Source: Cetorhinus maximus (taxonomy: Eukaryota). From it: a stretch of 64,000 nucleotides of DNA. The DNA lies in the NCBI RefSeq assembly GCF_964194155.1, contig NC_135899.1, positions 46,500,001-46,564,000 on the forward strand, in the 5' to 3' direction. Below the pieces are notes generated by a model that worked only from the letters and a program-made list of their open reading frames with translations, made no database searches and had not been told where the DNA came from. Positions 1,808 through 46,621 of this stretch are shown here, in pieces. Position 1 is the stretch's first letter; each line of letters starts with the position of its first letter. A program made the position numbers and the translations under genes.

Positions 1808-2935
1808 AATAAAAGCAAAAAACTGCGGATGCTGGAAATCCAAAACAAAAACAAAAATACCTGGAAAAACTCAGCAGGTCTGGCAGCATCTGTGGAGAGG
1901 AGCACAGTTAACATTTTGAGTCCGCATGACTCTTCAACAGAACTAAGGAAAAATAGAAAATGGGTGAAATATAAGCTGGTTTAAGGGGGGGCGGGGGGTG
2001 GGGGGCGGGGGGGGGGGGTGACAAGAAGAGCTGGATAGAGGGCCAGTGAGAGGTGGAGATAACCAAAAAATGTCACAGACAAAAGGACAAAGAGGTGTTG
2101 AAGGTGGTGATATTATCTAAGGAATGTGCTAATTAAGGGTAGAAAGCAGGACGAGCAAGGTACAGATAGCCCTAGTGGGGGTGGGGTGGGGTGAAGGAAT
2201 CGAAAAAGGCTAAAAGGTAGAGATAAAACAATGGATGGAAATACATTTAAAAATAATGGAAATAGGTGGGAAAAGAAAAATCTATATACATTATTGGAAA
2301 AAACAAAAAGGAGGGGGAAAATCGGAAAGGGGTTGGGGATGGAGGAGAGAGTTCATGATCTAAAATTGTTGAACTCAATATTCAGTCCGGAAGGCTGTAA
2401 AGTGCCTAGTCGGAAGATGAGGTGCTGTTCCTCCAGTTTGCGTTGAGCTTCACTGGAACAATGCAGCAAGCCAAGGACGGACATGTGGGCATGAGAGCAG
2501 GGTGGAGTGTTGAAATGGCAAGCGACAGGGAGGTCTGGGTCATGCTTGCGGATAGACCGAAGGTGTTCTGCAAAGCGGTCACCCAGTCTGCATTTGGTCT
2601 CTCCAATGTAGAGGGAGCATTGGGAGCAACGAATGCAGTAGACTAAATTGAGGGAAGTGCAAGTGAAATGCTGCTTCACTTGAAAAGAGTGTTTGGGCCC
2701 TTGGACGGTGAGGAGAGGGGAAGTGAAGGGGCAGGTGTTGCATCTTCTGCGGTTGCATGGGAAGGTGCCGTGGGAGGGAGTTGAGGTGTAGGGGGTGATG
2801 GAGGAGTGGACCAGGGTGTCACAGAGGGAACGATCCCTACGGAATGCCACCGGGGGGGTGATGGGAAGATGTGTTTGGTGGTGGCATCATGCTGGAGTTG
2901 GCGGAAATGGCGGAGGATGATCCTTTGAATGCAGA
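1808..2935 (-). mobile_element. Penelope-like retroelement 3' part with pseudo-LTR
   Basis: GIY-YIG ORF plus the pLTR block gatgctggaaat...ctcagcaggtctggcagcatctgtggagag, which recurs at least five times in the window. Confidence 0.9.
2353..2850 (-). pseudogene. Penelope GIY-YIG endonuclease domain with CCHH linker (5'-truncated)
   Basis: CNRRRCNTCP...FTCTSLNLVYCIRCSQCSLYIGETKCRLGDRFAEH...EQHLIFRLGTLQPSGLN. Confidence 0.9.
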
Positions 2936-2939
2936 ATGC

Positions 2940-4380
2940 GGCAATTGGGAGGCCTATAGTAAACCCCCAACATTGTGATTGCACCCTTCCTATTCCGGAG
3001 CTCTACCATATTGCCTCACTGCATGAGCCCAATGAGGTGTCCTCCTGTCGTACAGCTGTGATATTCCCCTTAACCAGCAGTGCAACTCCCCCACCTCTTC
3101 TACATCCCTCTCTATCCTGCCTGAAACATCTAAATCCTGGAACGTTTATCTGCCAATCCTGTCCATCCTTCAATCAAGTCTCTGTAATAGCAATAACATC
3201 ATAGTCCCAAGTGCTAATCCAAGCTCTAAGCTCATCTGCCTTGCCTGTTATGCTTCTCGCATTGAAACAAATGCATTTCAGACCCCCAGTCCCACTGTGT
3301 TCAGTAATTTCTCCCTGCCTGCCCTTCCTCTTAGTGCTACTGGCCATATTCACTGGTTCCCAGTCCTTTATTTCACCTGCTGATCTATTGCTCTGGTTCC
3401 CACCCCCCTGCCATGCTAGTTTAAACCCTCCCGAGTGACACTAGCAAACCTCGCAGCCAGGATATTGGTGCCCCTCCAGTTTACTGGCGGATCAGCCATG
3501 ATTTCATTGAATGGCGGAGCGTGCTTGAAGGGCTGAATGGCCTACTATGTTCTTATGTGCCTCTGTAATTTTCCCAATGTGGACCATGACCCCTGGCTGT
3601 TCATCCTCCTCCAGAAGAATGTTCTGCAGCCACCCTGTGACATCCTTAACCCTGGCACAAGGGAGGCAACACGCCATTCTGGAGTCATGTCTGTGGACGC
3701 AGAAACACCTGTCTGTTCCTCTAACAAATGAATCTCCTATCAGAATTGCCTTTCTACTCTTCTTCCCCCCTTCCTGTGCAGCTGAGTCACCCATGGTGCC
3801 GTGGACCTGGCACTTGCTGTACTCCTCTGAGGAATCATCACCCTTACCAGCACCAAAAATGAAAAACCAGTTAACCAGTGAGATCGTCTCTGGTCACTAG
3901 CTGCTTGGTTCTCTTAAACTGCCTGGTGATCACTCTCTGCCTGCACGGTGTGACTACCTCTCTAAACGTGCTATCCACGTAGATCTCTGCCTCACGGATG
4001 CACCACAGTGACTCCAGCCGCTGCGTGAGTTCTGAAACCTGGAGCTCAAGCTTTTGGAGCCTATGGCACTTCTTGCTGATGTGTTTGTCCAAGACATTTG
4101 GTGTGTCCAGCACTTCCCACATACCACAGGAGGCATATTCTACTCGGCCGAGCTGACCTGCTGTACCTTAACTTTACAAACTATTTATTATAAGTAGAAT
4201 AACTTACCAGTTACTCAACAATCAATTTTTTTTCTGCTGCACTGATGTAAGAATCAAATACTGGAGGGTGAAAAATGTAGAAAAAGACAGGAGAATCTCC
4301 TTCCCCCAATTCATCGAACGCCCTCACTCACCAAACTCCTTGTTTCACACTCTGTTCAAACCGCACTCAAGTCTAAATGA
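2940..4380 (-). mobile_element. CR1/HER1-like LINE 5' half: ORF1 zinc-finger/coiled-coil, SGNH esterase, start of the APE endonuclease
   Basis: ORFs AILIGDSFVRGTDRCFC..DSRMACCLPCARVKDV and KCHRLQKLELQVSELTQRLESLWCIREAE; a short CR1 3'-end fragment is inserted at ~3488-3558. Confidence 0.85.
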
Positions 4381-4389
4381 CTCTGCTCC

Positions 4390-4650
4390 CTCCACCCTTT
4401 TACTTATTATTTATTCATTCATGGAATTTGAGTGTCGCTGGCAAGGCCAGCATTTATTGCTCATCCCTAGTTGCCCTTGAGAAGGTGGTGATGAGCTGCC
4501 TTCTTGAACTGCTGCAGTCCTGTGTTGTAGGAACACCCACAGTGCTGTTAAGGAGGGAGTCCCAGGATTTTGATATGGAAAATTGCCCAGATATGGCCTG
4601 TCCACAAAAAATGGACAAATCCAATCTTGTCAATTGGCAGTCCACTCTCA
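4390..4650 (-). mobile_element. Stub of the tRNA-headed LINE family: 3' tail plus an inverted internal RT fragment
   Basis: 4390-4572 matches the family 3' end (ttattcattca...ggccagcatttattgc); 4573-4650 matches the WKIAQVCPVHKKQDKSN region in the opposite orientation. Confidence 0.75.
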
Positions 4651-5134: not shown

Positions 5135-8100
5135 TATTGACCTTTAATAACCACAGCCATCTTCTTTTGTACTAGGTATGACTCCAACCAGCAGAGAGTT
5201 TTCCCTCTGGTTCCCATTGACTCCAGTTTTGCTAGGGTTCCTTGATGCCACACCTGGTCAAATGCGGACTTGATGTCAAGGGCAGTCACTCTCACCTCAC
5301 CTCTGGAGTTCAGCTCTTTTGCCCATGTTTGAACCAAGGCTATAATGAGATCAGGAGCTGAGTGACCCTGGCAGAAACCAAACTGAGTGTCAATGAGAAG
5401 GTTACATCTTGGCAAGTGCCACTTGATAGCACTGTTGATGACCCTTTCCATCACTTTACTGATGATCGAGAGTAGACTAATGGAGCGGTAATTGGCCGGG
5501 TTGGATTTGTCCTACTTTTTGTGTACAGGACATACCTGGGCAATTTTACACATAGCTGGGTAGATGCTAGCGTTGTAGCTGTACAGGAACAGCTTGGTTA
5601 GGGGCGTAGCAAGTTTTGGAGCACAAGTCTTCAGTACTATTGCTGGAATATTGTCAGGGCCCATAGCCTTTGCAGTATCCAGTGCCTTCAGCCATTTATT
5701 GACATCACGTGGAGTGAATCGAATTGGCTGAAGACTGGCATCTGTGATGCTGGGGACCTCCGAAGGAGGTGGAGATGGATCATCCACCTGTCACTTCTGG
5801 CTGATGATTGTAGCAAATGCTTCAGCCTTATTTTTGGCATTGATGTGCTGGGCTGTCCCATCATTGAGGATGAGTATTTTTGTGGAGCCTCCTCCTCCAG
5901 TGAGTTGTTTAATTGTTCACCACCATTCACGACTGGATGTGGCAGGACTGCAGAGCTTAGATCTGATGTGTTGGGCTTAGCTCTGTCTATTACTTGCTGC
6001 TTTCTGTTTGGCATGCAAGTATTATATATTATATTATTATATATATAATTATAGCTCCACCAGGTTGACACCTCATTTTAAGGTATGCCTGGTGCTGCTC
6101 CTGGCATGCCCTCCTGCACACTTCATTGAACCAGGGTTGATTCCCTGACTTGGTGGTGATGGTAGAGTGGGGGATGTGCTGGGCCATGAGGTTACATATT
6201 CTGGTTGAGTACAATTCTGCTGCTACTGATGACCCACAGCACCTCATGACTGCCCAGTTTTGAGTTTCTAGATCTGTTCAAAATCTATCCCATTCAGCAC
6301 GGTGGCGATGCCATACAACATGATGGAGGGTATCCTCAATGTGAAGACGGGACTTCGTCTCCACAAGGACTGTGCAGTGGTCACTCCTACCAATACTGTC
6401 CTGGACAGATGCATCTGCAGCAGGCAGGTTGGAAAGGATGAGGTCTAGTATGTTTTTCCCTCTTGTTGGTTTCCTCACCACCTGCTGCAGACCCAGTCTA
6501 GCAGCTATGTCATTTAGGACTTGGCCAGCTCAGTCAGTAGTGATGCTACCGAGCCACTCTTGGTGATGAACTTTGAAGTCGCCACCCCCAAGTACCCTTG
6601 ACACCCTTAGTGCATCCTCCAAGTGACGTTCAACATGGAAGAGTGCTGATTCATCAGCTGAGGGAGGGTGATATGTGTGCAGTGGGAAGTTTCCTTGCGC
6701 ATGTTTGACCTGATGCCATGAGATGTCATGGAGTTGATATTGAAGACTCCCAGGGCAACTCCCTCTCTACTGTATACAACTGTGCCACCACATATGTTGA
6801 ATCTGTCCTGCCGGTGGGACAGGACATACCCAGGGATGGTGATGGTGGTGTCTGGGACATTGTCCGTAAGGTATGATTCCGTGAGTATGACTGTGTTAGG
6901 CTGGTGCTTGACTAGTCAGTGAGACAGCTCTCTCTCCTTTGGCAAAAGCCACAGATGTTAGTAAAGAGGATTTTTGCAGGGTTGACAGGGCTGAGTTTGC
7001 CGTTGTCCTTTTCGGTGCATAGACCAATGCTGGGTAGTCCATCTGGTTTCGTTCCTTTGAGACTGTTTAGTGGTTTTACGACTGAGTCAATTGCGAGGAC
7101 ATTTCAGAGGGCGCTTAGTTAATTCCAGATTTTAATTGAATTCAAATTTCACCATCTGCCGTGGTGGGATTTCAACCCGCATTCCCAGAGCATTACCCTT
7201 GGTCTCTGAATTACTAGTCTAGTGACAATGCCGCCATCTTCAGCTGCTTCATCAATGACTTTCCCTCATCATAAATTCAGAAGTGGGGATGTTTGTTGAT
7301 GATTGCACAATGCTCAGCACCATTTGCGACTCCATAGATACTGAAGCAGTCCATGTCCAAATGCAACAAGATCTGGGCAACACCTAGGCTTGGGTTGACA
7401 AGTGGCAAGTAACAATTATACCACACAAGTGCTAGGCAATGACCATCACCAACAAGAGAGAATCTAACCATCGCCCTTGATGTTCAATGGCACTACCATC
7501 ACTGAATCCCCCACTATCAACATCCTGGGGGTTACCATTGAACTCAACTCGCCAAATAAATGGCTACAAGTGTAGATCAGAGACTAGGAATCCTACGCCG
7601 AGTAACTCACCTCTGACTCCCCAAAGCCTGTCCACAATCTACAAGGCATAAATCAGGAGTGTGATGAAATACTCTCCATTTGCCTGGATGAGTGCAGCTC
7701 CAACAACACTCAAGAAGCTTGACATCCAGGACAAAGCAACCCACTTGATTGGCACCCCATCCATAAACATTCACTCCCTCCACCACCGATGCACAGTAGC
7801 AGCAGTCTGTACCATCTACAAGATGGACTGTAGGAACTCAACAAGCCTCCTTAGACAGCACCTTCCAAATTCACGGCCACTACCACCTAGAAGGACAAGG
7901 GAAGCAGATGCATGGGAACACCACCACCTGGAAGTTCCCCACCAAGCCACTCACCATCCTGGCTTGGAAATATATTGCCGTTTCTGCACTCTCGCTGGAT
8001 CAAAATCCTGGAACTCCTTCCCTAACAGCACTGTCAGTGTACCTATGCCACATGGACTGCAGCAGTTCAAGAAGGCAGCTCATCGCCACCTTCTCAAGGG

Positions 8101-8165
8101 CAGTTAGGGATGGGCAATAAATGCTGGCCTAGCCAGTGATGTCCACATCCAGTGAATGAATTGAA
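5135..8165. mobile_element. tRNA-headed APE-RT LINE (CR1-group-like), near full length with inverted 5' part (5135-7234 on -, 7234-8165 on +)
   Basis: Minus part runs from the tRNA head through APE (PTRGKNILDLIL..SDH) to RT (QFGF..ALDIKSAFDQVWH..KMAVVIKGQ). Plus part continues at IFSCFIND.. through FVDD to the 3' tail tgaatgaa. Confidence 0.9.
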
Positions 8166-24168: not shown

Positions 24169-25880
24169 ATGGCCCCAAGGAACAAAAAGAATGTTGCACA
24201 AAGGTTAGCCATGGCTCCCTGGGGGCTTTAATCAGAGGTGTCTGCCAGCACAGGGATGTACTTTATCCAAGGGATGCATCCAGGAGGTCCACCAAACTCA
24301 TCTCGCCAGCCTGGGGGGAGGACGCAAAAGAGGTCAGCTCCGCGGGCAACCACCAAAGAAATGCGATCCAGTGCAGGAAGAAGATGAAAGATCCCATCCG
24401 CACTGCTACGGTAAGTCAACCTTCAGCTCACTCCAAGCTCACACTCTCATAATGACATTATGCACTCAAAGCATCACACAGCTCAGGGGTCTCACAATAT
24501 TAGCGGCGGGGTGGGGGGGATAACAACATTGAATGGTTCATCACCAGCATTTCACCTATCATGCTGCACAAACAGCATCCTCGGCCCTTACTGGGGAGGG
24601 CTCAGCACACACAGCAGGCATGCATGCTTCCCAATCTCTGCTCCATCCCTTCTCATCACATTCCATTCCATTTGCCTTCATGCAGGCCAAACTGGCCCAC
24701 AACAGGAGGGAGACTGGAGGAGGGATGGCCAACATACTCAAGCTGACCAAATTCGAGGAGGATGCCACCCAGTTGGCAGGGGAGGACAGGGATCACTCCT
24801 GTGATGAGGATGAGATCGGCCTCTCACATCAAACCAGTACGGATGAGGCCTCCATAAATTGATCACATCCTGACATCCCACATGCAATATTGTATTCAGT
24901 CTGCTCATGAACTAAATCTAACTTTTCTCTTTTACAGTCACTAGTAGGCCCAGACAGACCACCAGAGCCAACATAAGCCCTAGTCCCCAGGCCAACTCAG
25001 AGGAGGACGCTGAGGATCCATTCAATGAAGCATTCACTTACACCTCCTACCGGCATAGGGACACACACCTTGGTGGGTGCTAGATCTAGATTTGGCTTGG
25101 GGTCACTTTATGGGGAACACCTCACTGACAGGTCTCCACAGTTGTCGGAGGCAGTGACAGCCCAGGTCTCTGGCACCCAGAGAACTGCTGGAGAACAGGC
25201 ACCTGTTGAGTCTCAGTCAGATGATGGGCCTCTGGAAGCAGTCATTGCTAACATGATGGAGATGCAAAGACGGGCGACGGAACATCAGGCACAGTTGCGA
25301 GAGGCAGCCAACAGACTAGAGCGAAGGATGGAGGAATCTGCCCGTGTTCGGTCTGATGTCATGGCTCCAACATGCGAGCGTCTCAAGGTCTCCATGGGAA
25401 GGGTGGCGGCTGCCTTGGAAACCCCAGTCCAGCAGAACCTGCCGGATTTGTGCTCGGACCTGCACTCCATTGCTATAGTCATTGGTGGGATCCATCAGTG
25501 GTTAGGGGAGAGGGGATGGCGCACCTCAGCTTCACTCCAAGTGCTCCTTCTCCTCAAGGAGTCAGGCAGGGGCCTTCAGATAGCCAAAGGAAGAGGATCA
25601 TCAGCTGGATACCTTGGGGCCATCCATTCAGGTGACTCCGAGAGTGCCCAGCCAACCCTAATCCCCTCTGCCTGTGACCCCATCACCTCCAGCTCCACAG
25701 GCCAAGGAGGGTGCACATGCTTCACAGCAGGAGACCCAAAGCAGGCTGAGGCCCTCCAGCTGCGGGCCTCCAGAGGATGCCTGCCAAGGTCATCACAGAC
25801 AACAGGGCGCCACATTCAGCAGGCTACCTCTACCTCGGTCAGGGATGTACCAAGATAGAGTGGTAGGGTTAGTAAAATTA
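24169..25880 (+). pseudogene. Harbinger Myb/SANT (trihelix) DNA-binding protein, 3 exons (24169-24410, 24686-~24837, 24938-~25880), frameshifted
   Basis: RDVLYP..PAW..VS..RNAIQCRKKMKD|gtaagt; cag|AKLAHNRRETGGG..LTKFEE; coiled-coil-like exon 3. Confidence 0.85.
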
Positions 25881-26639: not shown

Positions 26640-27700
26640 TGTTGTGCTGCTTTGAGGGCATCACCACATGGAAGTTGACCCTCATCACCCCCTTCAGGTT
26701 CCTGCCCTTTCAGGTCTTCATCGTCCAAAGAACTCTCAGCCTCCTGCATGTCTCCATCTGGCAAGTGATCTCCCTTTTGAAGCGCCAGGATGTGAAAGGC
26801 GCATCAGACCATGATTATGTGGGACACCCTCTGTGGAGAGCACTGCAGAGCCCCACCTAAGCGGTTCAAACATCAGAAGTGTATCTTCAGGATGCCAATG
26901 ATGGATCTCGTTACACAGTGTGCCATGTTGTATCTCTCCTCTGAGGCACTTTGAGGATGACGCATGGATGTCATGAGACACCTTTTTAGTGGGTACCCCT
27001 TATCACCCAGCAGCCAACCATGTAAGCACTGCAGCCATTCAAATATCTGAGGCACCTGGGAGTGACTCAAGGTGCAGAAGTCATGGGAACTCCCAGGGTG
27101 CCTGGCACAATCATGCATGATGTGCTTCTGATGATTGCAGACCAGTTGAACGTTGAGGGGGTGGAACCCTTTCATGTCAATGAAAATCAGGGACTGCTGC
27201 CAGGGAGCTCTTAAAGCTACATGTGGGCAATTGATTGTACCCTGCACTTTAGGGCAGCCGGTGGTCACCGCAAATCCCAGAAATCTAGCAGCTTGGCTAG
27301 CTTCATCCATCGTGAACATTATATAATGTTGAGCCTTTCTGTAGAGGACATCTGCCACCTCATCTATACATTTATGTTTTGAGGCCTGAGGGATGCTGCA
27401 TCCCTGTGGATCCCTGGAGCGCGCTGCTTGCAAAAAAATGAGTGCGGCAGTGACCTTCAGGAGCACTAGCAGGGGGTGGCCTCCTAGTCCATGTGGCATC
27501 AGATCCTCCTGCAGAATGTGGCAGATATGATCCACCACATCGCTTGACAAATGTAGACATATGAGGCACTGTCTCACGCTCATCTCCAAATAGGAGAGGC
27601 ATCTTACGGTAGATTTACCCTTGGTTGTGCCAGTCGCATCTGTTGGCCTCCTCAGCCTTTGAATCTTCCTGGGGCTCCCCTGGACAATGGGCCTCAGGCC
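26640..27700 (-). pseudogene. Harbinger DDE transposase (HARBI1-like family), decayed
   Basis: ORF 26873..27589: PKVQGTINCPHV (first catalytic D changed to N), KGFHPLNVQLVCNH, PGSSHD, GWLLGDKGYPL, YNMAH. Confidence 0.9.
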
Positions 27701-27724
27701 AGGGCTTCACTCGAAGCTATGCTA

Positions 27725-28609
27725 GATGGCAACAGGTTGCAGATTGATATAGATATGTTAAGTGAGTGGGCAAAGATCTGGCAAATGGAGTTTTAACATG
27801 GGAGAATGTGAAGTTGACCACTTTGGCAAGAAGAACAAAAAAGCAGAGTATTACTTAAATGGAGGACAGCTGAATAATTCTGAGATGCAGATCTAGGTGT
27901 TCTAATGCATGATTCACAAAAAGTTAGTATGCAGGTACAGCAAGTAATTAAGAAGGCTAATGGAATGCCATCCTTTATTACAAGTGAGATTGAACATAAA
28001 AGTAAGGATGTTATGCTTCAGTTATACAGGGCATTGGTGAGACTGCATCTTGAACACTATGTGCAGTTTTGGTCTCATTTTAAGAAAAGCTGTAAATGCA
28101 TTGGAGGTGGTTTAAAGGAGGTTTACTAGATTGATACCTGGAATAAGTGGGTTGTCTTATGAGGAAAGGTTGAATAGACTGGGCTTGTTGCCACCCAAGT
28201 TCAGAAGAGTGAGGGGTGATCTGATTGAAGTATACAAGATCCTGAACGGCCTTGGCAAGGTGGATGTCAAAAGGATGTTTCCTCTTATGGGTGAGTCCAG
28301 AACTTGAGGCACTGTTTTAAAATTAGGGGCTGCCCTTTTAGGACAGAGATGAAAATAATTTTTTTTTTTTCAGAGGGTTATGTGACTTTGGAACTCTCTG
28401 CCTCAGAAAGTGGGGTGGTGGGGTCATTGAATATTTTTAGGGCAGAGGTAGGTAGATTCTTGTCAGGCAAGGGAATCAAAGATTACCGGGGATAGATGGG
28501 GATGTGGAAATTGAAATACAAGAAGATCGGCCATGATCTTATTGAATGGCGGAGCAGACTTGAGAGGCCGAATGGTCTACTCCTGTTCCTATTTCTTATG
28601 TTCTTATGT
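27725..28609 (+). mobile_element. CR1/HER1-like LINE 3' part
   Basis: QVIKKANGM..LQLYRALVRLHLEHYVQFWS; (ttcttatg)n tail. Confidence 0.9.
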
Positions 28610-31745: not shown

Positions 31746-33772
31746 GGGTGCCTCAATGGTGATGAGAAATGGTGTGGGTGACTGGGGAAGGGGACATGTG
31801 TGGGAGTGCAGGAAGAATGTCATGGTCACCATGCTGTTCTTGTTGAATCTAAGCAGAGTCACGTGTTGCAGGTCCCAAGATGCTGCATGGGAATTGGGTC
31901 AGTGGGTGGGTGGAGATGCAGGTCATCTCAGCTGGACAACTGAAAGGGAACCCCAGCAGGTAGTATTGACAAGGCTACGGGCCTGGGATATGGCACTTTG
32001 ACAGATGTGGGCTCGGCATGTACAGGAGAGTGCTTGTACATGGCCCGCAAAGGCCCTGCCACATACCCTTCTCTGAGCAGACTCACTCGGGGTGGGGTGG
32101 GGGTGGTGGGTGGGTGGGTTGGGGGGTTGGGTGTCCGCAGGAGAGCTGGTAGGTTGGGGGTGTGGCTTTGCTAAGCCTTAAGAACCACAGCGAAACAAGA
32201 TAGTCGACATTATTGCAGTGGAAGTGATTATATTTACAGAACTTATAATTGTGACAATTATTTACACACCTTTGGAACCAGTTGTCATCAAAACTTCTTT
32301 ATTTTCCATGGCCTACTACTTCTCCTAGGTGCAGGGGTGGAGGCAGCCTGCTGACCAATTGCCCTTGTTGCCTTTGATGACCTTCGCGGCCGTCCTGTGG
32401 AGAGCCAAAAGCTTTCTTTGGCTGTTCTCCAGTGGGTCAGCTGCAGGGACAGAAGACAAGGTTGAAGGGGTCACAGGCAAAGCGGATTAGAAGGTCCAGA
32501 CAACCTCTGAGATTCCTGTGTGGATGAACCAGGGATGTCCAGCTGCTGCTCCTCCTCCCTTCAGGAGTCTGAAGGCCCCACTCTGGCTCCTTGAGGGAAA
32601 GGTGCACCTGGAGAGACATTGAGGTGCCCCATCCCCCCAATGCGTGCCACCTACTGTGGTGGAGTGCAGGCCTGCACACATCTCCGGCAGGATCTGCTGG
32701 ACTAGGATCTCCATGGAGTCTGCCAACCTCCCCACGGAGACCTCGATGCGTGCACAGGTCGGCACCACTTCACCAGAGAGCAGGTGGACGGACTCCTCTG
32801 ACTCACGTGCTACCTTGTTGAGGGCCTCCAACTCCCCTGTTTGATATTCCCCCACTGCTTGCTGACTCTCCACCATTAGTTGAAAAGCCGATTCCAGAGG
32901 CAAGTCATCTGACTCAGACCTCGCAGATGCCTCTTTGCCTCTTCCCCAGCACTCCTCCGAGTGCTAATGAGCTCGGCTGACCCTGCCTCCTCCTGCTGCA
33001 GACATGTGTCCGTGCGGTGACCACCAGACTGTAAGACCCTCCCTAAGCTAGAACTAATGCCTACTAAGGTGTGTGTCTCTGGGCTGGGGGAGGGTGCAGG
33101 TGTCAGCTGTGACATTTCTGCACATGAATATCTCTCCTCTTATCCTCTCTCCTGCTCTCCTCTCCAGGTTAGGGCTTCTGCTGAGGACTGACAGAGAGTC
33201 CTCATCCTTGGGCCTTGGCCTCTTCCTGGTGGCACCTGTAAGTGAGAGAGGAGAAAGCAAGTGACAGCATGAGCTGCCTCCAACATGGTGGCACATTTGG
33301 CCTTGGATCCTTACTGGATGGATGCCCAAGTCCAAGCTCCCTATTGCCAATTGTGCAGTCCCACTCCACACCTGCAAGCTGGGTTGCCCTCTCCTTGAAC
33401 TCCGTGAGAGGTCTCAGATGTGGTGCCTCTCTCCTGCCTGTATTTTCCTGTTCTTGATGGTTTTGCCTCATCTTCTCTTGCTCAAAGACAACAGAAAAGA
33501 TGGGTTTGAGAGGAATTGAATGTTATATCCATTTGTACATTACAAATAGACAGCCATTTCTCATACTTCCAATCTTAATGTAACCCACTGTTGTGTGGCC
33601 TGGCATTACTGCTCTACAAGTTGCCCAGAAGGGCAGTGGGCCAGCTCCCTCCAGAGTGCTGAACCCATCCACATGCAAGGGGAAGCTCAGGCAGGCATCG
33701 GATTTACGAAGGTTGCTGGTGCCCTCTTTGCCCAATCCCCCCACCACCTCCATCCCTCTCCCTTACAGTGAT

Positions 33773-36700
33773 TTTATTTTTATTCATTCACGGGATGTGG
33801 GCTTCGCTGGCTAGGCCAGCATTTATTGCCCATCCCTAGCTGCCCTTGAGAAGGTGGTGGTGAGCTGCCTTCTTGAGCTGCTGCAGTCCATGTGGTGTAG
33901 GTACACCCACAGTGCTGTTAGAGAGGGAGTTCCAGGATTTTGACCCAGTGATAGTGAAAGAACGGTGTTATATTTCCAAGTCAGGATGGTGAGTGACTTG
34001 GCGGGGAACTTCCAGGTGATGGTGTTCCCATGCATCTGCTGCCCTTGTCCTTTGAGATGGGAGTGGTCAGGGTTTGGAAGGTGCTGTCCAGGGAGCCTTA
34101 GTGAATTCCTGCAGTGCATCTTGTAGATGGTACACACTGCTGCTACTCTGCGTTGATGGTGGAGGGAGTGAATGTTTGTGGATGTGGTGCCAATCAAGCA
34201 GGCTGCTTTGTCCTGGATGGCATCAGGCTTCTTGAGTGTTGTGGAAGCTGCACTCATCCAGGCAAGTGGTGAGTATTCCATCACTCTCCTGACTTGTGCC
34301 CTGTAGATGGTGGACAGGCTTTGGGAGTCAGAAGGTGAGTTACTCATCACACAATTCCTAGCCTCTGACCTGCTCTTGTAGTCACAGTATTTATATGCTA
34401 GTCCAGTTCAGCTTCTGGTCAATGGTAACCCCCAGGATGCTGATAGAGGGGTTTCAGTGATGGTAATGCCATTGAACATCAAGGGGCGATGATTGGATTC
34501 TCTCTTGTTGGAGCTGGCCATTGCCTGAGGCTTGTGTGGCACAAATGTTACTTGCTACTTGTCAGCCTAAGCCTGGATATTGTCCAGGTCTTGCTGCATT
34601 TGGACATGGGCTGCTTCAGTGTCTGAGGAGTCGCGAATGGTGTTGAACATTGTGCAATCATCAGCAAACATCCCCACTTCTGACCTCATGATGGACGGAA
34701 AGTAATTGATGAAGCAGCTGCAGATGGTTGGGCCTAGGACACTACCCTGTGGAACTCCTGCAGTGATCTCCTGGAGCTGAGATATCTGACCTCAAACAAC
34801 CACAACCATCTTCCTTTGTGCTAGATATGACTCCAACCAGTGGAGAGTTTTCCCCCTAATTCCCATTGACTCCAGTTTTGCTAGGGCTCCTTTATGCCAC
34901 ACTCGGTCAAATGCTACCTTGATGTCAAGGGCAGTCACCCTCACCTCACCTCAGGAGTTCAGCTCTTTTGTCCATTTTTGAACCAAGGCTGTAATGAAGT
35001 CAGAAGCTGAATGGCCCTGGCGGAACCCAAACTGAGCATCAGTGAACAAGGTATTGCTAAGCAAGTGCCGTTGATAGCATTGCTAATGACCCCTTCCATT
35101 ACTTTACTGATGTTCTGGAATAGACAGATGGGGTGGTAATTGGCCAGGTTGGATTTGTCCTGCTTTTTGCGTACAGGGCATACCTGGGCAATTTTCCACA
35201 TCACCGGGTAGCTGCTAGTGTTGTAGTTGTACTGGAACAGCTTGGCTAGGGGCGTGGTAAGTTCTGGAGCACAAGTCTTCAGTACTATTGCCGGAATATT
35301 GTCAGGGCCCATTGCCTTTGCAGTATCTAGTGCCTTCAGCCGTTGCTTGATATCACATGGAATTGAATTGGCTGAAGACTGGCATCTGTGATGCTGGCGA
35401 CCTCCGGAGGAGGCTGAAGTGGATCATCCACTCGTCACTTCTGGCTGAAGATTGTTGTAAATGCTTCAGCCTTATCTTCTGCACTGATGTGCTGGGTTCC
35501 AACATTATTGAGGAAGGGTATATTTTTGGAGCCTCCTCCTCTAGTTAGTTGTTTAATTGTCCATCACCAATCACGACTGGATGTGGCAGGAGTGCAGAGC
35601 TTAGATCTGATCTGTTGGTTGTGGGATTGCTTAGCCCTGTCTATCACTTGCTGCTTATGCTGTTTGGCATGCAAGTTATAGCTTCACCAGGTTGACACTT
35701 CATTTTTAGGTGTGCCTGGTGTTGCTCCTGGCATGCCCTCCTACACTCTTCATTGAACCAGGGTTGATCCCCTGGCTTGATGGCAATGGTAGAGTGTGAG
35801 ATATGCCGGGCCATGAGGCTACAGATTGTGTTCAAGTACAATTCTGCTGTTGCTGATGGCCCACAGCACCTTCTGGATGCCCCGTCTTGAGTTGCTATGC
35901 CTGTTTGAAATCTATCCCATTTAGCATGGTGGTCGTGCCACACAACACAATGGAGGGTATCCTCAAAGTGAAGGTGGGAAGGTGGGACTTCATCTCTACA
36001 ACAACTGTGCGGTGGTTACTTTTATCGATACTGTCATGGACAGATGTATCTGCAGCAGGCAGGTTAGTGAGGATGGGGTCAAGCATTTTCTTCCTCTTGT
36101 TGGTTCCCTCACCACCTGCCGCAGACCCAGTCTAGCAGCTATGTCATTTAGGACTCAGCCAGCTGTGGTGCTACTGAGCCACTCTTGGTGATGGACATTG
36201 AAGTCCCCTACCCAGAGTACATTCTGCACCATTGCCACCCTCAATACTTCCTCCAATTGGTGTTCAACAGGGAGGAGCACTGATTCGTCAGCTGAGGGAG
36301 GGTGGTACATGGTAATCAGAAGGACCTTGCCCATGTTTGACCTGATGCCATGAGACTTATTGAGGTCCGGAGTTAATATTGAGGACTCCCAGGGCAACTC
36401 CCTCCTGACTGTATACCACTGTGCCACTACCTCTGCTGGGATGGTGATGGTGGTGTCTGCGACATTATCTGTAAGGTACGATTCCTGAGGATGACAATGT
36501 GTCAGGCTGTTACTTGACTGCTCCGTGAGACAGCTCTCCCAATTTTGGCACTAGTCTCCAGATGTTAGTAAGGAGGACTTTGCAGGGTTGGCAGGCTGGG
36601 ATTGCCGTTGTTGTTTCCGGTACCTAGGTTGATGCTAGGTGGTCCATCCAGTTTAATTCTTTTTTTGTGACATTGTAGTGGTTTGATACAACTGAGTGGC

Positions 36701-37004
36701 TTGCTAGGCCATTTCAGAGGGCATTTAAGAGTCAACCACATTGTTGTGTGTCTGGAGTCACGTGTAGGCCAGACAGGGTAAGGATGACAGATTTCCTTCC
36801 CTTTAGAGCATTACTGAACCAGATGGGTTTTTACAACAATTGACAATGGTTTCATGGTCATCATAATTCTTTTAATTCCAGATTATTATTGAATTCAAAT
36901 TCCACCATTTGCTTTGGCAGGATTCAAACCCGGGTCCCCAGAGCATTACCCTGGGTCTCTGGATTACTAGTCCAGTGACAATACCACTACGCTATCGTCT
37001 CCCC
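33773..37004 (-). mobile_element. Full-length (~3.2 kb) tRNA-headed APE-RT LINE, decayed single ORF
   Basis: tRNA head, ~430-nt leader, APE (WVGDFNVHH), RT (GPDNIP..NYHPICL..PQGSVLGP..FADD), 3' tail tgaatgaataaaaa. Confidence 0.92.
36915..37004 (-). promoter_or_regulatory. tRNA-derived Pol III internal promoter at the LINE 5' end
   Basis: A box TAGCGTAGTGG (36994-36984), B box GGTTTGAATCC (36930-36920); homologous head at 7160-7238. Confidence 0.8.
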
Positions 37005-43125: not shown

Positions 43126-43199
43126 AAAATTGAAGATTCAGAAGACGATTCTATCCTAAACAACCCTTGATTGGCCAAGGCTGGCTTAATGATGAGGTG

Positions 43200-44360
43200 A
43201 GAGCGACCACACTTTATATCAAAGCAGCATTTGACTAAGTGTGGCATCAAGGAGCCCTGGCAATATTGGAGTCAATGGTAATCAGGGGAAAAACTCTCCA
43301 CTGGTTGGAGTCATACCTAACTCAAAACAAAATGTTTGTGGTTGTTGGAGGCCAATCTTCTCAGTCCCAGGACATTGCTGCAGAAGTTCCCCAGGGCAGT
43401 GCCCTAAGTCCAACTATCTTCAGCTGCTTCATCAATGATCTTCCCTCCATCATAAGTGGGGATATTCACTGATGATTGCACAATGTTCTGTACCATTTGC
43501 AACTCCTCAGATACTGAAGCAGTCCATGCCCGCAGGCTGCAAGGCCAGGACAAAATTGAGGTTTGGACTGATAAGTGGCAATTAACATTTGTGCCACATG
43601 AGTGCCAAGCAATGACCATCTTCAACAAGAAAGAATATAACGGCATTGAACGGTATTACCATCGTTGAATTCCCCCCACTATCAACATCCTTTGGGGTGG
43701 GGTAGGGGGCGGGGTGGGGGTTACCATTGACAGAAACTTAACTGGATCAGCCATACAAATATTGTGGTTAAAAGAGCAGGCTAGAGGCTGGGAATTCTGT
43801 GGTGAGTAACTCACCTCCTGACTCTTTAAAGACTGACCACTATCTACAAGGTATGATCAGGAGTGTGATGGAATACACTTCATTGCCTGGATGAGTGCAG
43901 CTCCAACAACACTCAAGAAGCTCAACACCACCCAGGGCAAAGGATCTCACTTAATCAACACCTCATCCACCACCTTAAACATTCACTCCCTCCACCACTG
44001 CCGCACAGTGTGTACCATCTACAAGACGCACTGCCTCAATTTGCCAAGCCTCCTTTGGCAGCACCTACGAAACACATGACTTCTACCACCTCGAAGGTCA
44101 AGGGCAGCAGGTGCATGGAATCTCCACCACCTGCAAATTTCCCTCCAAGTCACTTACCATCCTGACTTGGAAATGTATCACCGTTCCTTTACTGTCATTG
44201 GGTCAAAATCCTGGAACTCCTTCCCTAGCAGCACTGTGGGTGTGCCTACACCACATGGACTGCAGCAGTTCAAGAAGGTGGCTCACCACCACCTTCTCAA
44301 GGGCAATTAGGGAACAAATGATGCCCTTCAGCAATCTTCACATTCCAAGAATAAATAAGA
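43200..44360 (+). mobile_element. 5'-truncated copy of the tRNA-headed LINE family
   Basis: VWHQGAL..VPQGSALSPTIFSCFINDLPS..FTDD to the 3' tail. Confidence 0.9.
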
Positions 44361-46621
44361 ATACTTGGAGAACACTATAATTTGAAACTGCACAAAAGAA
44401 TAAGGGTAGAAAGCATCTTGCAAAAACAAGTAATTGCATTTTATTCTGTGCTATGATTTTACTGACACCTGTGAGCCTGCACTCAATGCAGACGGCTTTA
44501 CAACAAGTTGACTGTTTTAAATTCTGTTACTGCAGTTTGAATGAATGCCTGCTCCCACACATTGTGTTTAATCCCAGATTAACCAGCTCTTCTCCAGATA
44601 CAACATCTCGCATTTACTTCTAAATGTCATTTAAGAGGTGTTTTTCTCCTTGGAGTTTTTTTTTACAATGTTCTCTCTCTCACCATGTTCATGTTGAACA
44701 TTGTGTTGGCTGATTGAGAGCCTGGGGGGTGGGGGGGAGGGGTGGGGGTAGCAATCAGATCCGAAGGGAAAAGCTTTCTATTACATGGTTGCTAGGAGGA
44801 AATGTTAGTACAGCAAGGTGAACAAATTCCCTCATACAGTATTCCCTCTTTCTGGGAAATTGTGTTCCCTGGAGATAAGGAACTTGTCACATGGACCGTT
44901 GGAGCAAACCTGCATCATTCTATCTTCCATATGCTATTTTGGTAAAGAATATTTTAATTGTATTGATAAAGATTCTTGCAAAGGTTCAGGTGATTATTTC
45001 TTCGTTTTCTTCACAAATCCCCCAAACCTTTAGATTTCTGCTGTTTGGCAGTTTTCTTGCACAGGCTGTAGTGGAGTTGCATAATAACACTTGTAAATCT
45101 ACATCCAGGTATTCATGAAGTAAGATACCCAATGGAATTAGATGAGCAGAAATATTGTGAGGGTCAGGTGGCAGAAAAGTGGGTCATTGGCTCCAATGTA
45201 ACTGACTGAAGGTTAAAAACCTTTGGAGCAAGGTGAAGTATCAAATGTGACATTAGCAAGTATTCAAAGATTTTTTTCAATTGCTTCCAGCACTTTAGCA
45301 CGGCAACAGGCTGTAGAAACATGAAAGTCAGTACTATAACTAGACGAAAATAGGATACTTACTGTGAGGTCAGGTCTTCAGGGTGTCCCTCTCTACTACT
45401 GCTCCTAAGTTTATTTTCATTGTGGTGCATTTGTGAAAATGATAGTTGCATTTTTGACTCAATCATTAAAGCTTGACAGTGGGCCAAAATTCTCTGAAAT
45501 TCCAAATATCTTCACCTTCTATCCCTGTAAAGAAACATTTCATCTGAATTCTTTGGTCAAATTTCTGCCTTACAAAGTGCTTTGTGAAGATATTACACCT
45601 ATAAATTTAACACTCTGTAACAATCCGTCCAGTAAAACATTCTTGATTCTCGGCTGACACTTAATTCTTCCCATATGTCCTTATTTGCATTATGTACCCA
45701 CCCCACCTAACTGGAATAGTGTAGACATGGGTTGAAATGTTGTGGGCGTGGGGGGAGTGGGGTGGGGGTGGTTGTGGCATGTTCCTGCCTCCCACCACCA
45801 TTCTAATTTATCCAAATTCAGGCAAGGAAGGGTGGGGACCTAATTCAAATGGCTAAACTGTGTTCCGAGGATGGCTTTGGGAGAGCTGCCATTTTAAATG
45901 CAGGTCTGTCTAAGGCCTGCATGGTCTCGAACCAGAGGGTATGAGTTAGTATTGCCAAGGTATTGGCCATGAAAGGTAAGTTTTTTTTTATTTTTAAAAG
46001 TTCCATGTTGGCTACTCCTGATCCATCTGGTTCCACAGGATACCTTGGGCCTCCCCTGCATGGCCTCCTCAGAACCCCCACACCACCCTGATTGCAGACT
46101 TTCTGATCTCTGCCTCCAGTTAAGGTTACCTTTATTTGGAACTGTTTCCCTGGGCCTCTGGTAGTGCCTTGGCCCCCACAAATTTTGACCCCCATTGGCA
46201 ACGATGCCATTCTTGCTAGCTTTGGGCAGGAGTCACTGTTGATGTAAGTAAATGAGGTCCAGGTGTCGAAATCTCGCAGGCGTTGTGTTCTGGGGTGTGG
46301 GCAGCTCCAGACCCCAAGTCACTGAGATAAAAGTGGGGCTAAATATTGACATAAGGCTGTTGCTTTGATGTCTTTTCAATCCACATTTTGCTAAGAGACA
46401 CAGTCCTGCTGCGAAGTGACTTGCTCAAGAGCCATACTTACTTCCAAAAAAAAGTTCCATTTGCTTTTGTTTGAAATTTAAAAAAAAAAATTTCTTGCAC
46501 TCCCATTCACTCTTACTGCATGCCAGACCAATATAGCACGACGGTTATTTCTAGAGGGTAAGAGTTGAAAAGTGGAGAAGTTATACTAAATTTGTCTTGA
46601 ACTTTGGTTAAACGACATTTG

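Follow-up and report, generated by a model that had tools for sequence, protein, structure and literature searches.

A shark Zenon LINE with a tRNA-like head and few sense-strand T-runs is a candidate transcript of RNA polymerase III

RNA polymerase III (Pol III) normally makes only short non-coding RNAs. LINEs, by contrast, are normally Pol II transcripts (available parts of PMC5786205 and PMC9148063). Positions 33773-37004 of the window (the whole stretch of 64,000 nucleotides of Cetorhinus maximus DNA that was analysed) raise the question of whether a LINE that encodes its own protein might be transcribed by Pol III. Read on the (-) strand, this element comprises a tRNA-like head, followed by endonuclease and RT fragments recognized by Pfam, and an A tail. 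Judged from its sequence, it is a copy of the elasmobranch Zenon LINE already published, full-length though decayed. This identity comes from a match, made by eye, to the first 400 nt of CarCar_Zenon-1 in the available part of PMC13343379, with more than 60 consecutive identical bases, the RT tree having been built with homologs that lack family names. The features of the element are as follows.

33773-37004 (-): Zenon LINE copy, full-length but decayed; the 69 fetched copies include 19 full-length single-HSP ones
36910-37004 (-): tRNA-Thr(AGT)-like head, at the exact 5' end
36984-36994 (-): A box, element nt 11-21; the same motif is in seven published elasmobranch consensuses (first 400 nt)
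36959-36975 (-): anticodon-like stem-loop with a Thr(AGT) loop
36933-36957 (-): extra hairpin of ~20 nt between the boxes, species-variable in length and sequence
36920-36930 (-): B box, with one C>T decay in the window copy
36690-36832 (-): 5' UTR core, near-invariant between sharks and ray and common to the SINE (by eye)
36655-36657 (-): position of a conserved AUG, out of frame, that starts an overlapping uORF of 35 codons; this AUG is mutated in the window copy
33836-36685 (-): single APE-RT frame, 969 codons in the column majority, broken in the window copy
33822-33827 (-): AATAAA, about 45 nt before the 3' end
33773-33790 (-): 3' end and A tail, with one T before the tail

The window copy is inactive: its B box has decayed, 34 nt are deleted, its frame is interrupted by stops and frameshifts, and it carries three TVTTT motifs that are absent from the family majority. 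The deleted endonuclease block (element nt ~566-600, window ~36437) has also been lost from other copies, 37 of 76 in all, the ends of the gap varying; it sits between short direct repeats, and its loss could reflect either recurrent deletion or a defective sub-lineage. No target-site duplications longer than 6 nt were found at the 19 full-length copies.

The window holds further copies of the family:

5138-7232 (-): second copy, inverted 5' part, with a partial head at 7119-7232
7234-8161 (+): second copy, 3' part, which with 5138-7232 forms one 5'-inverted insertion
43193-44363 (+): 5'-truncated copy of the same Zenon family
4404-4573 (-): short 3' fragment of the same Zenon family

The insertion at 5138-8161 is presumably of the twin-priming type. 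The initial annotation had placed an A/B-box head at the exact 5' end of both this copy (as 5135-8165) and the one at 33773-37004. This was correct for the latter, but in the former the head lies at 7119-7232 (-), at the inversion junction, and its A box is incomplete. The position of the head at that junction suggests that the RNA that was copied would have included it. Retention of the head alongside a 5' inversion or an internal deletion was observed at 5138-8161, L095 and L337. The two diverged copies in the window did not define a separate, older subfamily.

Unrelated elements also occur in the window. A Harbinger-type DDE_Tnp_4 fragment (Pfam match) adjoins a 293-aa frame without a Pfam match at 26873-27706 (-) and 24977-25858 (+); there is a repeat at 32463-33080, and the whole is likely a decayed two-gene DNA transposon. 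A Cys/His-rich frame at 2353-2886 (-), without a Pfam match, has what we take to be a resemblance to a Penelope-type GIY-YIG end.

At least 59,519 first-look candidate copies of the Zenon-type element are present in the genome. Sixty-nine long copies were fetched (30 + 39, the second set without the window's own copy) and 58 more were added later; the mean divergence of the fetched copies from the column majority is 6.6%, and they belong to a single lineage, in which neither copies nor species are independent replicates. The 39-copy set was chosen on element nt 245-1105, i.e., downstream of the head. Within it, 28 copies come within 25 nt of the 5' end, including three whose head is split by an insertion; truncation or rearrangement accounts for the other 11. 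No pair of 5' flanks stays similar as far as the element boundary, and none of the 39 copies extends upstream of the head, carries an ORF1 in a longer form or has an alternative 5' end. As copies selected downstream reach the head, their flanks are unrelated and the seven published consensuses start at the same point, the family truly begins with the tRNA-Thr-like A/B-box head. The endonuclease domain begins at 36578 (element nt 427), in agreement with the annotated APE-RT start at ~430 nt, and no copy has an upstream extension, which confirms the lack of an ORF1. The lack is not new, having already been published for all Zenon elements, as has a family consensus.

The head can be aligned, with an insertion of ~20 nt, to L100, a tRNA-Thr(AGT) gene in the same genome, and in six of six copies the alignment score exceeded those of all 300 shuffles. 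ARAGORN and Rfam returned no tRNA or ribozyme call for the head and 5' UTR, in the case of the head probably because of the extra ~20-nt hairpin. In the available part of PMC13343379 (the first 400 nt of each row), an A box, a Thr-type loop and a B box open all seven elasmobranch Zenon rows, from five species. Both boxes are conserved across these rows and the spacer is variable; in the ray consensus the B box lacks one base, and one dogfish row is without part of the stem. No TTTT was seen by eye in these 7 x 400 nt. Over the same length, two hagfish rows and one coelacanth row of Zenon have no head and do contain TTTT, and six B-box 10-mers matched only six rows, all elasmobranch Zenon, among 1,004. 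Folding of the 5' 450 nt of one copy was no better than that of shuffles (z 0.13). The near-invariant 5' UTR core may be a translation or RNP signal.

The sense strand of 33773-37004 contains no TTTT, compared with 16 A4+, 9 G4+ and 6 C4+ runs, confirming both the reported absence of AAAA from the (+) strand and the abundance of sense A4+ runs. The AAAA-free gap on the (+) strand spans 4,229 nt, the next-longest AAAA- and TTTT-free gaps of the window being 1,548 and 1,655 nt. The annotation's estimate of about five expected AAAA was close to the mean of mononucleotide shuffles (5.3, P=0.007), dinucleotide shuffles giving 2.9 (P=0.027). Its other counts were also reproduced: the pieces at 7234-8165 and 43200-44360 are without TTTT, the two sense TTTT exceptions at 6280 and 6944 are real, and the CR1 piece at 27725-28609, credited with at least six sense T4+ runs, has seven. 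Across the 69 copies, TTT and TTTT occur at 3.5 and 0.30 per kb, versus 11.1 and 2.4 for the corresponding runs of G, a base of similar frequency. The 58 added copies follow the same pattern (TTTT 0.33/kb vs GGGG 2.49/kb), and CR1 copies in the same genome contain 4.07 TTTT/kb at 23.5% T. Taken singly, the copies mostly differ significantly from base shuffles and mostly do not from dinucleotide shuffles.

The shortest motifs that work as Pol III terminators are TTTT and TVTTT (available part of PMC8466645), and interrupted terminators have been reported as well (available part of PMC3141230). The column majority of the element has no TTTT, no TVTTT and six TTT. In the strictest null, the protein and its codon set were held fixed while the column majority was permuted. 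Under this null, 2.0 TTTT are expected in frame (P=0.10) and 3.1 overall (P=0.035), 3.9 TVTTT are expected (P=0.007), and the two motifs together are expected 7.0 times (P=0.0003), so that the depletion exceeds that of codon-shuffled controls. The depletion of TTTT by itself is only marginal here; the strong signal is that of TTT and TVTTT. The analogues of the two motifs in the other bases are near expectation (A, 31 vs 26.9; C, 23 vs 22.6; G, 18 vs 18.3). Within the frame, TTT occurs four times against 12.4 expected, below all 5,000 permutations, and it is the most depleted non-CpG trinucleotide of the 64. None of 43 codons ending in TT is followed by T, and none of 28 codons starting with TT is preceded by T. 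Phe makes up 1.9% of the protein vs 2.0-6.5% (mean 3.8%) in 120 homologs, and none of its 18 codons is flanked by T. The dinucleotides TT and TA are also depleted, and part of the signal is thus a general T-poor dinucleotide bias.

Two other causes of T-run depletion were considered and rejected, namely avoidance of self-cleavage, since sense A-runs are normal, and avoidance of splice tracts, since pyrimidine tracts are normal. No avoidance of internal poly(A) signals or pyrimidine tracts was detected in the element. At element nt ~1104 (window 35910), a TTT-CG site has decayed to TTTT in 11 of 58 copies, though TTTT is not the majority form there. A low-Phe clade is present among the homologs.

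LINE frames from 160 outgroup loci served as a control, 140 of which had a usable frame and 20 of which were dropped. The observed/expected ratio for TTT is 0.32 in the Zenon frame vs 0.74-1.23 in the 140 other frames, in which TTTT sums to 2,410 against 2,382 expected. Seven CR1 frames of the same genome, the set that remained after removal of L102 (which returned the Zenon frame), contain 97 TTT vs 93.8 expected. Natural Zenon frames contain eight TTTT, six of them in L020, whose frame start looks un-Zenon-like. The T fraction is 0.26-0.35 in most outgroup frames vs 0.21 in the Zenon frame. The closest fetched relative, L212 (34-2892), shares 38% identity and has an intact 953-aa APE-RT frame with one TTTT vs 3.7 expected and 2.2% Phe; its 5' end is absent from the locus. 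In L255, L291, L250 and L254, TTTT is under all or nearly all permutations and TTT is near-normal; no head was seen in the first three, and all four are other candidates for Pol III read-through or host bias. A scan for A/B boxes upstream of 75 outgroup frames of 800 aa or more, where the upstream DNA was often short, found one loose pair, at L170, a frame with 16 TTTT.

The presence of an A/B-box head together with the absence of sense stop motifs suggests that the autonomous Zenon LINE is probably transcribed by Pol III as one 3.3-kb RNA. Alternatively, the element could be a Pol II LINE, as LINEs normally are, its head serving to promote Pol II transcription or to form an RNA structure, and its U-runs being avoided on account of A-tail pairing, RNA decay, immune sensing or T-poor composition. 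The AATAAA ~45 nt before the end would accord with this, as would the low TT and TA and the T-poor composition of L212. It is nevertheless unlikely, as the avoided words are the minimal Pol III stops TTTT and TVTTT (available part of PMC8466645), the effect is limited to T and to the sense strand, both boxes are conserved and the spacer is not, and T-run depletion was not seen in other LINE frames.

The properties of the coding frame bear on how a Pol III transcript might be used. Pfam Exo_endo_phos_2 and RVT_1 were found on natural element fragments, and the column majority has one frame of 969 codons, in which the first in-frame Met is codon 285, deep inside the protein. The frame is under purifying selection in the source lineages. 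Among variants shared between copies, 38 of 60 fall in third positions and 37 of 60 are synonymous, compared with 1,116 of 4,907 among rare variants; upstream of the first Met, 20 of 39 shared variants are synonymous. As shared variants are mostly third-position or synonymous and rare ones are not, and as the pattern extends ahead of the first Met, the headed lineage appears to have needed its protein. None of the 60 shared variants creates a Pol III stop motif. Upstream there are thirteen AUGs, the final one of which starts the 35-codon uORF, and no AUG ahead of the endonuclease domain is in frame. With the first in-frame AUG only at codon 285, ribosomes scanning from a cap would reach the frame inefficiently. 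The uORF AUG is present in 56 of 70 copies, and in 68 of 70 the uORF and the endonuclease lie in different frames. The uORF was considered as the possible true N-terminus of the protein; in its frame, eight of eight shared variants are non-synonymous, as against six of nine in the main frame ahead of the endonuclease, albeit at few sites.

A life cycle that runs entirely on Pol III is, on balance, the favored reading of these data, though by no means a secure one: an uncapped 3.3-kb RNA, purged of stop motifs, would be translated without an in-frame AUG via the conserved 5' UTR core, in a lineage that would have been successful in sharks and rays since their split. In this scheme, TFIIIC would bind the A and B boxes of the head, and Pol III would read through because stop motifs have been purged, even at a cost to codon and Phe choice. 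The RNA would terminate either at a T-run preceding the A tail or in flanking sequence, translation would begin by internal, non-AUG or uORF-coupled initiation, and the encoded protein would use target-primed reverse transcription to copy the RNA that encodes it. Template switching between SINE and Zenon RNAs, before the shark-ray split, is the likely origin of the head. Contigs of four runs guessed to be RNA have a 3'-heavy profile that is uninformative on the polymerase or the start site.

If labor were instead split, with the Pol III RNA being copied and most of the protein supplied by capped Pol II transcripts that arise at the same source loci (from flanking promoters or read-through), the head and the T-run purge would be accounted for without translation of an uncapped RNA. 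However, the 13 upstream AUGs and the lack of any in-frame AUG ahead of codon 285 would handicap cap scanning on such transcripts too, and purifying selection on the copied frame fits use of the protein in cis, making this arrangement improbable. At the 3' end, T4+ precedes the A tail in 18 of 64 LINE-type ends and, genome-wide, in 4,444 exact matches vs 9,386. This T4+ class is linked to neither subfamily variants nor age, and junctions of the type T(n)A(m) with T4-5 occur commonly throughout the genome, flanking DNA included. The 3' T4+ runs are therefore ambiguous, may reflect neutral decay, and were set aside as proof of termination.

A ~400-nt SINE consists of the first ~315 nt and last ~75 nt of the element, and its junction was matched exactly 88 times. 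It differs from the LINE at diagnostic sites, where its bases resemble the dogfish Zenon head, and at one locus (L024, ~3187-3524) a SINE copy begins directly after the 3' end of a LINE copy. The existence of this SINE with the same head, and the 37 of 76 copies without the 34-nt endonuclease block, could be taken to mean that a longer Zenon without the head mobilizes the headed form, itself a passive SINE-LINE chimera, with the missing TTTT due to chance or composition, but this very improbable proposal is largely refuted by the lack of an alternative 5' end among 39 copies, by purifying selection on the frame, also ahead of the first Met, and by the same head in five species.

Should the Pol III reading be correct, the textbook division between Pol II LINEs and Pol III SINEs would be broken, and a vertebrate Pol III transcript of more than 3 kb could be translated, i.e., a natural Pol III mRNA would exist. 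The element would be a self-contained promoter-plus-enzyme cassette and would allow a direct test of the AUG-less translation start in an ORF1-less LINE. A Pol III-headed LINE would also offer a route to SINE birth by simple internal deletion.

Neither a Pol III-transcribed autonomous LINE nor a head on Zenon is described in the open literature searched, which includes the available parts of PMC3747384, PMC7245038, PMC1845163, PMC10294476, PMC4824008, PMC5499810, PMC10468316 and PMC9148063, with subscription papers, Repbase, Dfam and SINEBase outside its scope; nor did it yield a precedent for a translated 3.3-kb Pol III RNA. In PMC13343379, the terms 'tRNA' and 'polymerase III' do not occur in the main text, nor 'tRNA' in the supplement, and its available parts make no mention of the head, the T-run purge, the AUG-less start or a SINE partner. 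The Zenon family is thus known, and the architecture of head plus T-run purge is undescribed in the literature searched. Of the initial reading as a whole, the head, the missing ORF1, the selected frame and the T-run depletion stood; neither the missing ORF1 nor the family is new.

Among known systems, the elasmobranch Zenon elements (CarCar_Zenon-1, RhiTyp, ScyCan, SquAca-1/2/3 and HypSab) are the same family, being ~3.3 kb in length, all lacking ORF1 and ending in a poly(A) tail, according to the available part of PMC13343379. Lepidopteran Zenon (PMC6740152) likewise has a single ORF and an internally deleted partner made of its 5' and 3' ends, the SIDE Persaeus; unlike the shark SINE partner, Persaeus is stated to have no tRNA homology or Pol III promoter. 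The shark SINEs HE1, SacSINE1 and CmiSINE and the MetaSINEs have tRNA-derived heads and come from the same animals or use the same tRNA type, but the partners reported for them are HER1/CR1 or L2 rather than Zenon. The Zenon SINE body motifs were not found in the MetaSINE and hagfish supplements when these were searched, and HE1 and SacSINE1 were set apart by description. RTE-1_DAn and related elements, of the RTE clade, are a LINE family said to contain tRNA-like sequence, a comparison made by description from the available part of PMC5786205. With respect to SINE2 traits, the window element has the A/B-box tRNA-derived head at its 5' end but, at 3.3 kb, is not short and non-coding, whereas the ~400-nt SINE is short, non-coding and non-autonomous. 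The T+ SINEs B2, Dip and Ves, as described in the available part of PMC8466645, share with the element a tRNA head, AATAAA and a variable T-run ahead of the A tail, old copies having both short and elongated T-runs; they differ in being short, non-coding and mammalian, and in that their transcription by Pol III has been shown experimentally.
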